41,916 nt of DNA from a virus. A program made the translations under genes and the position numbers. The notes below the pieces were generated by a model. The model saw nothing but the letters and a program-made list of their open reading frames with translations. It searched no databases and was not told where the DNA came from. Location of the stretch: UHGV virus genome UHGV-0326656; one strand, 5' to 3'. Shown one piece after another: positions 11,078-16,195 of the stretch; position 1 is the stretch's first letter, and each line of letters begins with the position of its first letter.

Positions 11078-11545
11078 TTTGCTGCTCCTCATCATATCGA
11101 CCCTGCAAGGTCGGTTAGTTTCTCCACAAAACAGAGAAGAACACCTGCGGTGGCTGCCGCCCGGATGGATTGGGTTATGAGCCCGTCGTCCGGTGATGCT
11201 CTTCTCTGTTTTGTAAAAAGGACGGTACCAGCCGGAAGCAAGGGTACAAGCTGGTACCGCCAAGACTACACACAGCATAAAGTTGTGGTGCCGGGTGCCT
11301 CCCGGTGCCTGGCGAAGGTTGCACACCAGGCGGGTGGGTATCCACAGAAGGTCGACTGTCAGCCTCAACCTTAACCCGCGTGCGCTGAGCCGCATTCACC
11401 ACAACGCTAAGGATTCTCTCTGGTTGAAAATACTTAGCTGTTATGTGCCTGCTTTTAGCCACATCAGGCGAGGTGGACCTAGTTATTCCCCAACAACAAG
11501 GATTCGGTTAATCTGGTTATCCCCAACAACGCAAAAGGAAAAGAA

Positions 11546-11980
11546 ATGTCCGGTAATATCTATACGCTGTACAAATCCCACTGTGAAAATGTTGGAAAGT
11601 ATCGGGGCATTGAAATCAGTGGGGTAGTGTCATCAGTCGAAATAAGCAAAGTTGAATCAAGGGCAACATTACTTACTCTTCTGGACCTTGTCTTACATGA
11701 GCACCGGAAGAAATTCGGCACTCCCTATAATCAGTTGAATGGGAAAAAGGCTCTGGTTCACCTTATTCTGATGAAGCATCACTGGATGCCAAAACAGATT
11801 AATGAGATGAAATTTGATGAACTTCTTCTTTCAATTCAGGATGAACTCACACTTGATAAAATAAGCGTAACCGCCCAGAAATTTTTAGATTATCGAGACT
11901 GGAGATCACAAATTCATCACTTTGATGATTTTGACGAAAATGAATGGGATCCTAATTTGTCTGCACAATATCTAAAGTAA
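11546..11980 (+). CDS. hypothetical protein, 144 aa, AT-rich moron in the immunity region
   Basis: AAGGA ribosome-binding site; oriented against the leftward early operon; preceded by two TTATYCCCCAACAAC direct repeats. Confidence 0.55.
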   Translation: MSGNIYTLYKSHCENVGKYRGIEISGVVSSVEISKVESRATLLTLLDLVLHEHRKKFGTPYNQLNGKKALVHLILMKHHWMPKQINEMKFDELLLSIQDELTLDKISVTAQKFLDYRDWRSQIHHFDDFDENEWDPNLSAQYLK

Positions 11981-12236: not shown

Positions 12237-12406
12237 TTTTGTTGCTAACGAATCATCCTGGACTTCATATGCCCCAGGCGGCTACTTCGTGGGCGTCCTG
12301 CCTGTTCGTTTTTGACATTTACTGACTGCTTACGACACATGCACCGTGTTGCAACCAGATTTTGTTGTAATCCTGTAGTTGGTCTGGAACAAAAGATAAA
12401 ATTAAA

Positions 12407-12443
12407 TTGCGAGATATGCAAGTTATATTTGCGAGATATGCAA
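12407..12443. promoter_or_regulatory. oL-like operator pair, two copies of TTGCGAGATATGCAA 22 bp apart
   Basis: Identical 15-mers at 12407-12421 and 12429-12443; same TTGCG-N5-GCAA pattern as 13211-13225 beside cI; reverse complement gives TTGCAT -35-like hexamers for a leftward promoter. Confidence 0.55.
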
Positions 12444-12454
12444 ATTTATAGGTA

Positions 12455-12477
12455 ATAAAAAGCCACCTTTCGGTGGC
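12455..12477 (-). terminator. rho-independent terminator downstream of cI
   Basis: Minus strand GCCACC-GAAA-GGTGGC followed by TTTTTA, about 20 nt after the cI stop. Confidence 0.6.
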
Positions 12478-12497
12478 CGATGGATGGGATATTGAGG

Positions 12498-13190
12498 TTA
12501 ATTATGTCTCTTAAGGGTTTGCGACTGACTGATTAAGACCTTTCCAAAGACCATGAATCGGTGTTCGTTTTCGCTAGTAATTCCCCATTCACGGTAAATC
12601 TGGTTATCAGAAATCACCAGCAGTTTGTCAGGAATCATTTGAAGTCTTTTAACGTATATTTTGTCATCAAAACCAAAGACATATATACCATCACCATCAA
12701 ACTGATTGATGCTGACATCAACGAAGATGAGATCTCCTGGCTCAATGGTTGGACACATACTGTCCCCACGAACGTTGATAACTTTGATGTGATTGGCTGG
12801 TCGTCCGCCGAACATTGATACAGCATTATCAGTTCTGTATTCGATGGCATGAATCACATCAATGACATCACCGCCCTGGATAAGGCCATTTCCCGCACTG
12901 GCACTGATATCCAGCATTTCAATACGGAACACATCCTTCACCTGCGCAACATCCTCATTGTTACTGTTTTTATATACAGTATTACTTTTGTGGGCAGAGG
13001 TAAAGAGATCAGCAATATCAACACCTAAGCTCTTGGCAATATTACTCAGTGTTTGTTCGGTAAATTGTTTTTGCTTACCCGTTTCTAAGCGCGAGATGTT
13101 CGCCGCATCTACTCCTATCGCTTCAGCGAGATCGGCGATTTTCATGTTCTTCGCTTGGCGAAGTTGTCTGACTCGGTTTCCTATGTTCAT
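12498..13190 (-). CDS. cI: CI-type repressor (N-terminal HTH, C-terminal S24 LexA-like peptidase domain)
   Basis: N-terminal HTH (VRQLRQAKNMKIADLAEAIGVDAANISRLETGK) and C-terminal ...INVRGDSMCPTIEPGDLIFVD...KIYVKRL with Ser/Lys dyad; divergent from cro. Confidence 0.9.
   Translation of the reverse strand: MNIGNRVRQLRQAKNMKIADLAEAIGVDAANISRLETGKQKQFTEQTLSNIAKSLGVDIADLFTSAHKSNTVYKNSNNEDVAQVKDVFRIEMLDISASAGNGLIQGGDVIDVIHAIEYRTDNAVSMFGGRPANHIKVINVRGDSMCPTIEPGDLIFVDVSINQFDGDGIYVFGFDDKIYVKRLQMIPDKLLVISDNQIYREWGITSENEHRFMVFGKVLISQSQTLKRHN
12962..12981. promoter_or_regulatory. near-consensus LexA (SOS) box inside the cI coding sequence
   Basis: TACTGTTTTTATATACAGTA = CTGT-N8-ACAG with AT-rich spacer, about 18 of 20 to the consensus TACTGTATATATATACAGTA; falls in the cI interdomain linker. 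Confidence 0.5.
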
Positions 13191-13210
13191 GCGTTTATTA
13201 CATTTCTTTA

Positions 13211-13225
13211 TTGCGTGATAAGCAA
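13211..13225. promoter_or_regulatory. oR-like operator in the cI-cro intergenic region
   Basis: TTGCGTGATAAGCAA differs from the two 12407-12443 copies at two positions; further ATTGCG/CGCAAT repeats follow up to the cro start. Confidence 0.5.
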
Positions 13226-13287
13226 ATCAACTTGCGCAAAATAATTGCGTGAAATAACATGCATAACGCGCAATATTTGGAGGGCGT

Positions 13288-13548
13288 ATGCAATCACCAT
13301 TACGAAATGTGCGTAAGGCGCATGGTTTCACTTTGCAGCATGTTGCTGCGGGTGTTCAAGTCAATCCAGCGACGTTGAGTCGTATTGAGAGGCTGGAGCA
13401 GATTCCATCTATCGAGCTTGCAGAACGTTTAGCCAATTTTTTTAAGGGTGAAGTCAGCGAAATGCAGATTCTTTATCCGGCACGTTTTCAATCTAGCCAA
13501 AACCAGAATGGGTTTAAACCACAGGAACAGGAGGTGAACCGTGGGTAA
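13288..13548 (+). CDS. cro: Cro-like HTH regulator
   Basis: 86 aa, HTH (FTLQHVAAGVQVNPATLSRIER), GGAGG ribosome-binding site, divergent from cI. Confidence 0.8.
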   Translation: MQSPLRNVRKAHGFTLQHVAAGVQVNPATLSRIERLEQIPSIELAERLANFFKGEVSEMQILYPARFQSSQNQNGFKPQEQEVNRG

Positions 13549-14092
13549 GCATCACTGGAAAGTAGAAAAACAGCCTGAGTGGTACGTGAAAGCTGTCAGA
13601 AAAACTATCGCAGCGTTGCCGGGGGGGTACGCTGAAGCTGCTGACTGGCTGGATGTAACAGAGAACGCATTATTTAACCGCCTTCGTGCCGATGGCGATC
13701 AGATTTTCCCGCTGGGATGGGCAATGATTTTGCAACGTGCTGGTGGAACTCACTTCATTGCTGACGCTGTGGCGCAGTCTGCAAATGGCGTCTTTGTGTC
13801 TCTTCCTGATGTCGAGGATGTGGACAACGCCGATATCAACCAACGCCTGCTGGAGGTCATTGAACAGATCGGCAGTTATTCAAAACAGATTCGTTCAGCA
13901 ATTGAAGACGGTGTAGTGGAACCGCATGAGAAGACAGCAATTAACGACGAGCTGTACCTCTCAATTTCGAAGCTGCAGGAGCATGCAGCACTGGTCTACA
14001 AAATTTTTTGCATTTCAGAAAGTAATGACGCCCGCGAGTGTGCAGCTCCGGGCGCCGTGGCGTGTCGTGACTGTGGAGAAACTAACGCATGA
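13541..14092 (+). CDS. phage regulatory protein, CII-like (CP76-type) (tentative)
   Basis: 183 aa, GTG start with AGGAGG ribosome-binding site, in the position of cII; family assignment from memory only. Confidence 0.45.
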
Positions 14093-14447: not shown

Positions 14448-15378
14448 ATTAACCGGCTATGTATGGGATGGTTGCGCAGCGTCAGGCATGAAATTATCCA
14501 GCGTGGCAATTATGGCCCGCCTGGCTGATTTCAGTAATGACGAAGGTGTGTGCTGGCCATCAATTGAAACCATTGCCCGTCAGATTGGCGCGGGGATGAG
14601 TACCGTCAGGACGGCTATCGCACGGCTGGAAGCAGAAGGCTGGTTAACGCGTAAGGCGCGTCGCCAGGGTAACCGCAATGCGTCGAATGTTTATCAGCTT
14701 AACGTTGCGAAGCTTCAGGCAGCGGCATTTTCTCAACTGTCAGATTCTGACCCGTCAAAATCTGACGCATCAAAATCTGACCCGTCAAAATTTGATGCGT
14801 CGAAATCTGGCAAAAAAGCGGGTTTTCACCCGTCAGAATCTGGCGGGGATCCGTCAGTAAAATCAAAACATGATCCGTCAGATAAAAAACCTTCTCGTCC
14901 GGACGCTTCGCAACCGGACACGCAGACGGATGAACAGGATTTTTTAACTCGCCATCCTGATGCGGTTGTATTCAGCCCTAAAAAGCGCCAGTGGGGAACG
15001 CAGGATGATTTGACCTGCGCACAGTGGCTCTGGAAAAAAATCATCGCCCTGTACGAGCAAGCCGCCGAATGTGACGGCGAGGTGGTTCGTCCCAAAGAAC
15101 CGAACTGGACAGCCTGGGCAAACGAAATTCGCCTAATGTGTGTGCAGGATGGTCGTACTCACAAACAAATCTGCGAGATGTACAGCCGCGTCAGCCGAGA
15201 TCCGTTCTGGTGCCGTAACGTGCTCAGCCCGTCGAAGCTGCGGGAAAAATGGGATGAGCTTTCCCTGCGCTTATCACCGTCCGTCAGCACGTACACCGAA
15301 AAACGCGAAGACCCGTACTTCAAATCCAGTTACGACAACGTGGACTACAGCCAGATCCCGGCAGGATTCAGGGGGTGA
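14437..15378 (+). CDS. replication initiator (lambda O-like, winged-helix N-terminus) with internal iterons
   Basis: N-terminal winged-helix region (LSSVAIMARLADFSNDEGVCWPSIETIARQIGAGMSTVRTAIARLEAEGWL); central SKSD-type peptide repeats encoded by the DNA iterons. Confidence 0.75.
   Translation: MSTKLTGYVWDGCAASGMKLSSVAIMARLADFSNDEGVCWPSIETIARQIGAGMSTVRTAIARLEAEGWLTRKARRQGNRNASNVYQLNVAKLQAAAFSQLSDSDPSKSDASKSDPSKFDASKSGKKAGFHPSESGGDPSVKSKHDPSDKKPSRPDASQPDTQTDEQDFLTRHPDAVVFSPKKRQWGTQDDLTCAQWLWKKIIALYEQAAECDGEVVRPKEPNWTAWANEIRLMCVQDGRTHKQICEMYSRVSRDPFWCRNVLSPSKLREKWDELSLRLSPSVSTYTEKREDPYFKSSYDNVDYSQIPAGFRG
14738..14890. repeat. about eight direct 15-bp iterons (CCGTCAAAATCTGAC-like); candidate phage replication origin
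   Basis: Units at 15-bp period: CCGTCAAAATCTGAC, GCATCAAAATCTGAC, CCGTCAAAATTTGAT, GCGTCGAAATCTGGC, CCGTCAGAATCTGGC, CCGTCAGTAAAATC, CCGTCAGATAAAAAA. Confidence 0.7.
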
Positions 15379-15380
15379 TC

Positions 15381-15869
15381 ATGAGTCTTTTGAATGAAGT
15401 TCAGAAATTCATTGAAGCCCATCCGGGGTGTACTTCCGGAGACATTGCGGATGCTTTTGCAGGTTACTCACGGCAGCGCGTTCTGCAGTCAGCAAGCAAG
15501 TTACGTCAGAGTGGGCGTGTGGCTCACCGTTGTGAAGGAGATACACGCAGACATTTCCCACGCCTGACTGAGAGAGCGCAGAAGCCGGAACCACAACCAG
15601 TTCGTGAAACCAGACCTGTGCGCAATTTCTATGTCGGCACTAACGATCCCCGGGTGATTTTGTGCCTGACCCGCCAGGCGGAAGAACTGGAGTCCAGGGG
15701 CTTATACCGTCGTGCTGCAACGGTGTGGATGGCGGCATTCCGTGAAAGCCACTCCCAGCCAGAACGAAACAATTTTCTGGCGCGTCGTGAGCGGTGCTTA
15801 CGGAAAAGCAGCAAGCGCGCTGTATCGAGTGATGAGTGGTATCTGTCAGGGAATTACGTGGGGGCGTAA
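15381..15869 (+). CDS. PerC-family transcriptional regulator-like protein (tentative)
   Basis: C-terminal ...LESRGLYRRAATVWMAAF...RRERC resembles the PerC motif as remembered; start chosen at ATG with GGGGG 5 nt upstream. Confidence 0.45.
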   Translation: MSLLNEVQKFIEAHPGCTSGDIADAFAGYSRQRVLQSASKLRQSGRVAHRCEGDTRRHFPRLTERAQKPEPQPVRETRPVRNFYVGTNDPRVILCLTRQAEELESRGLYRRAATVWMAAFRESHSQPERNNFLARRERCLRKSSKRAVSSDEWYLSGNYVGA

Positions 15870-16195
15870 TGACGACGTTAACTCAATGCCAGCAGCAGGT
15901 GCTGGATATGCTGATTTCTTACCAGAAAGAGCGTGGCTTTCCGCCAACCAATCAGGAGGTGGCAACCATGCTGGGATACCGTTCAGTGAATGCAGCGGTA
16001 GAGCATCTTCGTGCACTGGAGAAAAAAGGCGTCATCACGATAAAGCGTGGCGTGGCCCGGGGGATAACGCTTCATACCGCGGTGAAGGACGACGACAGCG
16101 AGGCGGTCGGGATTATCCGCGCACTGCTTGCCGGTGAGGAAAACGCCAGGCTGCGTGCAGCCCACTGGTTACATGAGAGAGGCCTGAAAGTATGA
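15869..16195 (+). CDS. LexA DNA-binding-domain-like protein with no peptidase domain
   Basis: MTTLTQCQQQVLDMLISYQKERGFPPTNQEVATMLGYRSVNAAVEHLRALEKKGVITIKRGVARGITL aligns along its length with the LexA N-terminal winged helix; only 108 aa. Confidence 0.65.
   Translation: MTTLTQCQQQVLDMLISYQKERGFPPTNQEVATMLGYRSVNAAVEHLRALEKKGVITIKRGVARGITLHTAVKDDDSEAVGIIRALLAGEENARLRAAHWLHERGLKV

Follow-up and report, generated by a model that had tools for sequence, protein, structure and literature searches.

A conserved LexA box inside the cI repressor gene of an enterobacterial prophage family and its possible role as the operator of an internal promoter

Why would the cI repressor gene of a lambdoid prophage carry, in the midst of its own coding sequence, a binding site for the SOS repressor LexA of its host? 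The question is raised by UHGV virus genome UHGV-0326656, a lambdoid prophage of 41,916 nucleotides (the window, by which we mean this whole stretch of DNA), in which an original prediction made from the sequence had recognized a near-consensus LexA (SOS) box within cI. Our comparative analysis argues strongly that this box is a LexA-binding site maintained by purifying selection acting on the DNA itself. With moderate confidence, we favor a model whereby the box is the operator of a LexA-repressed internal promoter that points in the cI sense direction and would drive the synthesis of an S24-only cI isoform of 144–147 amino acids.

The immunity region of the window (12300-13600) is 99.3% identical at the DNA level to that of Shigella phage SfII, and the SfII counterpart is annotated as cI and encodes a protein that is 100% identical to cI of the window. 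This protein matches the Pfam helix-turn-helix (HTH) families HTH_3/HTH_26 at residues 7-64 and Peptidase_S24 at residues 104-218 (E=6e-19). The 20-mer TACTGTTTTTATATACAGTA on the plus strand lies exactly where the original prediction had placed it (Table 1), and the codons beneath it, which encode N-T-V-Y-K-N-S-N, fall between the two Pfam matches and thus, as predicted, in the linker between the HTH and S24 domains. The box is a 6-bp inverted repeat that agrees with the consensus TACTGTATATATATACAGTA at 18 of 20 positions, the core being exact, and has A or T at all eight spacer positions (8/8), so that its description as a near-consensus box with an AT-rich spacer holds; read on the cI sense strand (TACTGTATATAAAAACAGTA), it is identical to the umuDC operator in the Escherichia coli K-12 genome. 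Moreover, TACTGTTTTTATATACAGTA is the sole CTGT-N8-ACAG in the 41.9-kb window and the sole site with at most three mismatches to the consensus, from which it differs at two positions, while the runner-up among the CTG-N10-CAG sites of the window has eight mismatches. None of 100 dinucleotide-preserving shuffles contained any site with at most three mismatches, and an estimate assuming uniform composition gives ~7e-5 sites with at most two mismatches per window. The bare 16-mer core is not significant by itself, at least one CTGT-N8-ACAG being present in 38 of 100 shuffles; the case for the box, and with it the earlier assertion that a chance match is unlikely, therefore rests on the full 20-mer and its family-wide conservation.

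To what extent, then, is the box conserved? cI genes were gathered from phage records, one genome per species, IMG/VR contigs and metagenome assemblies. The resulting 308 loci comprise 150 distinct nucleotide sequences, which fall into 30 lineages that are less than 88% identical in nucleotide sequence to each other and differ from the window by 24-34%. The box occupies cI nt 210-229 in all 150 distinct sequences and in all 30 lineages, and it is present in Salmonella ST64B, in Stx2a phages and in Klebsiella and Citrobacter prophages. Its core is kept as CTGT-N8-[AC]CAG in 150/150 sequences, the spacer stays AT-rich with the family consensus AT[A/G]TA[A/T]A[A/T], and the arm TACTGT is invariant in 30/30 lineages while the other arm reads [A/C]CAGT[A/G/T]. 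The changes in the arms (A15 to C in 5/30 lineages, A20 to G in 9/30) are never compensated and are typical of natural LexA sites. At the protein level, 118 of the 120 clusters with 68% identity or more encode the motif; one exception is a T71A variant, common in Citrobacter, that still reads TGCTGTATATAAAAACAGTG (TGCTGT...ACAG), and the other is a single-contig member that has lost the box. The box is also kept in L394, a member with 60% identity, and L442, which shares only the C-terminal domain (CTD) and has a different N-terminal domain (NTD), carries the LexA box CACTGTTGATAAATACAGTG in its linker.

The pattern of codon usage suggests that selection acts on the nucleotides. T71, V72 and S76 are the sole invariant residues in an otherwise hypervariable linker, and among eight deep lineages a single codon is used in 2 of 35 invariant four-fold columns, one of which is T71 (ACT), and in 1 of 24 six-fold columns, which is S76 (AGT). 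Similarly, the third base is fixed in 4 of 62 hypervariable columns (at least three amino acids), and three of these four are codons 70, 73 and 75 of the box. Altogether, the box contains seven third-codon positions, of which six are invariant, versus a background of ~8-10% (binomial estimate ~1e-6).

Other LexA-like sites occur in some members of the family. A second, weaker palindrome, TACTGCGGCTGAAAACAG[T/G]A, is found at cI nt 189-208 in L253, L251, L257, L134, L258 and L260, where it begins inside the putative -35 element described below, 21 nt upstream of the main box. Phages mEp460 (L002 4860-4875) and Stx2a_1447 (L003 4858-4873) have a second exact CTGT-N8-ACAG, GGCTGTAAGTAACCACAGAG; because this site is GC-rich, has poor flanks and lies inside the open reading frame (ORF) of a Rha antirepressor, we take it to be probably a chance match.

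If LexA binds within cI, what might it control? In the cI sense direction, the promoter-proximal half of the box could double as a -10 hexamer, TACTGT, with a putative -35 hexamer, TTTACC, exactly 17 bp further upstream. The -35 position reads TTTAC[CGAT] in 28 of the 30 lineages and TTTATT in the other two, and the 17-bp spacing is constant in 30/30 lineages and 119/119 protein clusters, the six intervening residues forming 57 different peptides; unlike this indel-free spacer, the linker downstream of the box is of variable length. The same geometry recurs in established SOS promoters, as sulA and umuDC of K-12 both have TTGATC, a 17-bp spacer and a TACTGT hexamer that forms the first half of the LexA box. 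Furthermore, when IMG/VR was scanned for the exact pattern TTTAC-N18-TACTGT-N8-ACAGT, 48 of the 119 matches fell in this cI family and the other 71 elsewhere. The majority of these 71 occupy intergenic positions 20-77 nt ahead of a Shine-Dalgarno (SD) sequence and the ATG of an ORF of 62 amino acids that is followed by dinI, in a locus just after a P2-type replication gene and 99% identical to Fels-2, which we take to be the 186/Fels-2 tum antirepressor operon; here, the order is TTTACA, 17 bp, the TACTGT-containing box, a leader of 20-77 nt, the SD and the start codon. Because this geometry is common to sulA, umuDC and the Fels-2-type locus, the arrangement inside cI is, as far as can be judged from sequence, the standard SOS promoter design of host and phage, and its promoter-like hexamers are both present and positionally conserved. 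With an approximate position weight matrix (PWM) for sigma-70, the cI site scores 6.5-8.7 bits in every lineage, compared with 8.4 for sulA and umuDC, and ranks 1-5 of ~3300 sense positions in every lineage. A strict consensus scan of 12300-13400 found no promoter, but as it also missed the expected PR and PRM, it is uninformative.

What would such a promoter express? A sense transcript that starts in the box can cover only the S24 domain because an intrinsic terminator directly follows cI, and this terminator would stop the PRM transcript and the internal transcript alike. Between the box and the Ala99-Gly100 codons, 29 of the 30 lineages have an in-frame GTG preceded by an SD with an anti-SD duplex of -5.2 kcal/mol or lower, whereas equal-sized segments elsewhere in cI contain such a start in a mean of 6% and a maximum of 30% of lineages. 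The Val87 column is the top position in the alignment for a start codon plus SD (73% of lineages), the next being Val95 (43%). Val87 is encoded by GTG in 23 of 29 cases, compared with 19% of all Val codons in these genes, a codon bias exceeded among the Val columns only by that of Val72 in the box. Where GTG87 is missing, GTG84/85 or GTG96 takes its place and is accompanied by an SD, and the SD-like element is kept through differing peptides, for example EG (GAGGG), KD (AAGGA), GD (GGAGA) and QEE (AGGAGG). Among box-less relatives (35-43% identity), 1/8 has an SD with an internal start; L442, with its foreign NTD, has both the box and the SD and GTG, whereas both are missing from L443, which is a closer relative in the CTD and has a lambda-like NTD. 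Met92, the start to which the window by itself would point, was ruled out, as it lacks an SD and is not a start codon in most lineages. In the 144-residue version of the nested product, Peptidase_S24 is matched with E=2e-19, and the nested ORF is 36% identical to K-12 UmuD over 83 residues with the GDSM and VK(R/K)L motifs aligned; UmuD and UmuD' are also the best PDB sequence matches in the S24 part. Of the products that the original prediction had considered for an SOS-controlled internal promoter, the truncated C-terminal protein thus gains comparative support, both from the shared promoter geometry and from the co-occurrence of SD and GTG with the box.

The position of the proposed internal start, residues 84-87, is also a recurrent boundary of the CTD module at which unrelated N-terminal domains are joined, and the CTD of cI therefore appears to behave as a shuffled module whose boundary coincides with the proposed start. 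In many homologs, the match to cI of the window starts only at residue 77-87 and the N-terminal domain is unrelated (P0123, P0133, P0137, P0143, P0153-P0156, P0162, P0166, P0167 and P0172); among these, P0166 (165 residues) and P0167 (domain at the N-terminus) look like stand-alone S24 proteins.

In our model, host LexA would occupy the box and thereby overlap the -10 element and the start site of a weak-to-moderate sigma-70 promoter on the minus strand, so that the internal promoter would be kept shut in an undamaged lysogen. Strong DNA damage would cause LexA cleavage and give rise to a short transcript that starts inside the box. During SOS induction, strong operators open only at marked LexA depletion, and since this operator is as strong as that of umuDC, the internal promoter should open only once LexA is well depleted. 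The SD and an in-frame GTG (Val84 or Val87) 20-30 nt downstream would then direct translation of a protein of 144-147 residues that contains the cleavage and oligomerization domain and lacks a DNA-binding domain (DBD). The S24 domain of lambda cI and LexA makes dimerization and cooperativity contacts and can cleave in trans, and the most plausible action of the isoform would therefore be to poison or cleave full-length cI. It would, in other words, be a built-in LexA-controlled antirepressor, which could weaken operator binding by forming mixed oligomers with cI or by trans cleavage and would supplement the RecA-stimulated self-cleavage of cI with an input that depends on LexA. Least certain in this model is the sign of the effect, and the isoform could instead be a decoy that slows induction. 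We thus put forward only tentatively the idea that this cI family has a LexA-controlled antirepressor of its own, nested in frame within the repressor gene and devoid of DNA binding.

Several observations weigh against the model of an internal promoter and isoform. The -35 hexamer is encoded by the conserved residues L-F-T, and its conservation is therefore not independent evidence; the promoter scores derive from one approximate matrix; and, since the lineages share ancestry, lineage counts represent non-independent events. LexA binding also seems to be kept more strictly than the promoter, because the widespread Citrobacter variant TGCTGT has lost the key A of the putative -10 hexamer while keeping the LexA core, and the distant L442 has CACTGT and no recognizable -35 hexamer. 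Concerning the internal start, L248 carries the box without a good start, the family-wide GTG87 has a modest SD in the window (-3.9 kcal/mol, GTG84 being better at -6.4), and linkers are often rich in Glu, Gly, Lys and Asp codons, from which SD-like purine runs can arise. Conversely, the box-less Mannheimia phage vB_MhM_2256AP1 (L320) has an in-frame ATG with an SD (-6.0 kcal/mol) at codon 87. Finally, the ST64B transcriptome and supplementary tables of PMC7067206, obtained under conditions that were mostly not SOS-inducing, list no non-coding RNA inside cI.

The ATG of L320 is found at the same domain boundary, in the sequence M-L-R-L-E-V-L-D, and hints that CTD-only isoforms may be made by internal initiation, without LexA control, in other cI families.

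The stricter conservation of the LexA core than of the promoter-like elements, as in the Citrobacter variant and L442, is in line with a roadblock, which is the most probable of the alternatives, even though we consider it unlikely. Here, LexA on the box would, without any promoter, block RNA polymerase coming from PRM ~230 bp upstream and reduce the amount of full-length cI; LexA cleavage would then raise cI synthesis, and thereby set the threshold of induction or help repression to recover. In agreement with such a mechanism, the box sits in a transcribed region of cI, and cI RNA of ST64B (in transcripts per million) is not lower, but somewhat higher, in the two conditions with the highest cro RNA. 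However, one repressor dimer deep within a transcription unit usually blocks transcription incompletely, and more repressor during the SOS response would contradict the logic of an SOS-inducible prophage. Moreover, a roadblock predicts neither the fixed 17-bp geometry, nor the co-occurrence of SD and GTG, nor the stronger conservation of one arm, so that this part of the original prediction accounts for the conserved LexA core and leaves the additional conserved features unexplained.

Because the box is palindromic, TACTGT-like hexamers are present on both strands, and the original prediction had also considered an antisense transcript. A plus-strand promoter freed by LexA cleavage would transcribe against the 5' part of cI and through OR into cro and thereby interfere with cI. 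The invariant first T of the box corresponds to the key A of an antisense TAnnnT hexamer, and decent hexamer pairs (up to 11 bits with the approximate PWM) surround the box in some lineages. Yet these hexamers vary in sequence and register between lineages and are located where the linker is prone to indels. They are poor in the E. coli group to which the window belongs; here, the -10 hexamer (TATTAC) lacks the final T and the -35 hexamers read TTGTTA in the window, TTATTA in SfII, CTAATA in mEp460 and CCAGTA in Stx2a_1447. As an antisense promoter would, in addition, leave the SD and GTG on the sense strand unexplained, we regard it as improbable.

It had further been proposed that the prophage's own LexA-DBD protein could bind the box, and in the strongest version of this idea the protein would target the box during lytic growth to shut off cI. 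The protein is a genuine LexA_DNA_bind match (E=3e-19) that is 43% identical to LexA residues 1-86, with a similar recognition helix (RSVNAAVEHL compared with RSPNAAEEHL in LexA). Its distribution is, however, independent of the box: the gene (at least 96% identity) is found in 50 phage records, many of which have an unrelated cI (SfV, SfIV, cdtI and Stx2c phages), and has no match in the records of ST64B, 18 Klebsiella phages, Citrobacter phiNP, Eeyore and Flotzy, all of which keep the box. For this reason, host LexA is the ligand that accounts for conservation of the box, any binding by the phage protein would be an add-on rather than the reason for it, and we consider the proposed link very improbable. 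The protein, which is 96-99% identical among the 50 records and is encoded next to dam, PAPS-reductase-like and rusA genes, is possibly a non-cleavable mimic of LexA in lytic growth. In SfII (L001 8082-9544), a 654-bp dam methylase gene lies between the PerC-like and LexA-DBD genes, while in the window (15375-16195) the LexA-DBD ORF directly follows the PerC-like ORF and dam is missing.

Least credible of all is that conservation of the box is unrelated to LexA and reflects a T-V-x-x-x-S protein constraint, an RNA hairpin, a recombination joint or chance: T71, V72 and S76 are indeed invariant, the box is an inverted repeat and the linker separates evolutionarily shuffled modules, but the fixed third bases of hypervariable codons 70, 73 and 75, the single codons used for T (of four) and S (of six) and the CTGT retained by the T71A variant speak against a protein constraint, the uncompensated arm changes, which are typical of natural LexA sites, argue against a hairpin in cI mRNA, the correlated divergence of NTD and CTD (r=0.74), with no discordance or breakpoint signal at the box, argues against a joint there, and the shuffles together with the 150/150 conservation exclude chance.

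How does a LexA-controlled promoter within cI compare with known systems? Beyond the promoter geometry, the cI locus resembles umuDC in that an S24 domain is encoded downstream of the box, as is the S24-only UmuD; the nested cI ORF would encode a UmuD-like stand-alone S24 protein behind a umuDC-identical operator, its separate expression being suggested by conservation of the SD and GTG. In contrast to umuDC and sulA, the -35 hexamer, spacer and box of cI all lie within coding sequence and are read as codons, and the internal start is a GTG in frame with a longer protein; furthermore, unlike for umuDC, no umuC partner or link to mutagenesis is expected. Nested regulators of this general kind are known from the Tn5 inhibitor protein and the phiC31 repressor isoforms, in which initiation at an internal start in the same frame gives a shortened protein that is devoid of the N-terminal DNA-binding part and modulates its full-length counterpart. 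To our knowledge, none of these nested truncated regulators is a repressor of the cI/S24 type whose internal promoter carries a LexA operator.

Two strategies of prophage induction have been distinguished, one based on cleavable repressors of the cI type (lambda, P22 and Fels-1) and the other on an uncleaved repressor and a LexA-controlled antirepressor encoded elsewhere (Lemire et al., PMC3121763). In the Gifsy prophages, cleavage of LexA induces a small antirepressor protein (gfoA/gftA), and the prophage repressor that it inactivates is itself not cleaved during induction (PMC3121763); the same article also cites 186 and N15 as cases of LexA-controlled antirepressors. With lambda, P22 and Fels-1 cI and with LexA, cI of the window shares the HTH and S24 domains, the Ala-Gly site and the GDSM and VKRL motifs as well as, at the level of the locus, the divergent cro and operator repeats. 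A97-S98-A99-G100, S144 (GDSM) and K181 (VKRL) are invariant across the cI family, and by analogy with the LexA, lambda cI and UmuD family, Ala99-Gly100 is predicted to be the cleavage site. The gene differs from the lambda, P22 and Fels-1 type in that it additionally holds a LexA operator, and the LexA box is absent from e14 YmfK and nine other box-less cI relatives examined; the e14 repressor gene ymfK, suspected as a relative because SfII cII is named YmfL, was ruled out as an unrelated type without the box. The known antirepressors of the tum (186 and Fels-2), antC (N15) and gfoA/gftA (Gifsy) kind are separate genes outside the immunity region, while the candidate described here would be part of the repressor itself, in the same frame, and this repressor retains both the Ala-Gly site and the Ser/Lys motifs. 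A whole-window scan found no separate LexA-controlled gene, the sole LexA-like site being that inside cI. The locus may function in the manner of SOS genes such as tum or umuD and, because there is no separate gene, stands outside the tum, ant and gfoA gene families. Judged by motifs and alignments, cI of the window combines the full feature set of a cleavable repressor with a LexA operator that has the architecture of an antirepressor promoter, inside the repressor gene itself.

We found no description of a LexA box inside this cI in the searchable literature, including PMC8072944 with its supplements, PMC7067206 and PMC3121763. The survey of the Salmonella SOS regulon in PMC8072944 considered only boxes that lie no more than 400 bp ahead of a start codon; neither its text nor its supplements contain the sequence of the ST64B box. 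The ST64B prophage of S. Typhimurium D23580 has this type of cI with the box; it is the sole D23580 prophage in which lytic genes are transcribed after peroxide and nitric-oxide shock (PMC7067206), and after ciprofloxacin, ST64B is up-regulated sooner than the Gifsy prophages (PMC12626290).

The features of the locus are collected in Table 1. On the other side of cI lie the divergent cro (13288-13548) and then a CII-like gene. Operator-like repeats with the pattern TTGCG-N5-GCAA flank cI on both sides, with degenerate copies of TTGCGAGATATGCAA and TTGCGTGATAAGCAA near the intact ones, and are presumably the left (OL) and right (OR) operator sites of this immunity type. Scans of the window for Rfam families and tRNAs gave no matches. 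A stretch of ~450 bp at ~11090-11540, which likewise has no Rfam or tRNA match, contains only overlapping, implausible ORFs in several frames; it is flanked by a gene of the 121-residue type (10715 to ~11080, minus strand) and an ORF of 144 amino acids (11546-11980).

Table 1. Features of the cI locus and of the LexA-DBD gene, in window coordinates.
Feature	Position	Strand	Basis or remark
cI repressor gene, 230 aa (HTH, linker, S24 autopeptidase domain)	12498-13190	minus	ORF, Pfam and SfII annotation
LexA (SOS) box, cI nt 210-229, codons 70-77	12962-12981	n/a	plus strand TACTGTTTTTATATACAGTA; cI sense strand TACTGTATATAAAAACAGTA
Putative -35 TTTACC, codons F63-T64	12999-13004	minus	exactly 17 bp upstream of TACTGT
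Putative -10 TACTGT, promoter-proximal half of box	12976-12981	minus	proposed; hexamer as in umuDC, sulA and Fels-2-type tum
Predicted internal transcription start, A-run in box spacer	12967-12970	minus	from position, 7 nt downstream of putative -10
Shine-Dalgarno-like GAGGA, 10 nt upstream of GTG84	12952-12956	minus	anti-SD duplex -6.4 kcal/mol
In-frame GTG (Val84), best internal start candidate in window	12939-12941	minus	SD strength
In-frame GTG (Val87), family-wide internal start position	12930-12932	minus	SD weaker in window, -3.9 kcal/mol
Proposed nested ORF, S24-only cI isoform without DBD	12498-12941	minus	147 aa from GTG84; 144 aa from GTG87 (12932)
Ala99-Gly100 codons (GCG GGA), predicted RecA-stimulated autocleavage site	12891-12896	minus	sequence and family invariance
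Intrinsic terminator directly after cI	12461-12478	minus	terminator also annotated in SfII
Left operator repeats TTGCGAGATATGCAA, two copies, downstream of cI terminator	12407-12421 and 12429-12443	n/a	read from sequence
Right operator repeat TTGCGTGATAAGCAA, cI-cro intergenic, PRM/PR region, ~230 bp upstream of box	13211-13225	n/a	read from sequence
LexA_DNA_bind-only protein, 108 aa, without S24 domain	15869-16195	plus	Pfam LexA_DNA_bind, E=3e-19

Sequences close to the cI allele of the window are found in 1040 of 5426 complete E. coli genomes, and the cI family has members in Stx2a- and Stx2k-converting phages (O157:H7 and other Shiga toxin-producing E. coli), the serotype-converting Shigella phage SfII, Salmonella ST64B, Citrobacter rodentium phiNP and many Klebsiella prophages. 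The box would be a clear example of a transcription-factor operator maintained inside a coding sequence, where selection holds synonymous and hypervariable codon positions fixed, and a whole promoter and ribosome-binding site are probably maintained there as well. If the antirepressor idea is correct, a single gene would integrate two separate SOS signals, the RecA-stimulated self-cleavage of full-length cI and the LexA-controlled derepression of its truncated form. The strategies of a cleavable repressor and of a LexA-controlled antirepressor would then be merged in one locus. Finally, we note that, should the box let LexA act directly on the decision between lysis and lysogeny in these phages, this would affect how toxin-encoding phages are induced by DNA-damaging antibiotics, and the textbook split between the two kinds of prophage would not be clean.

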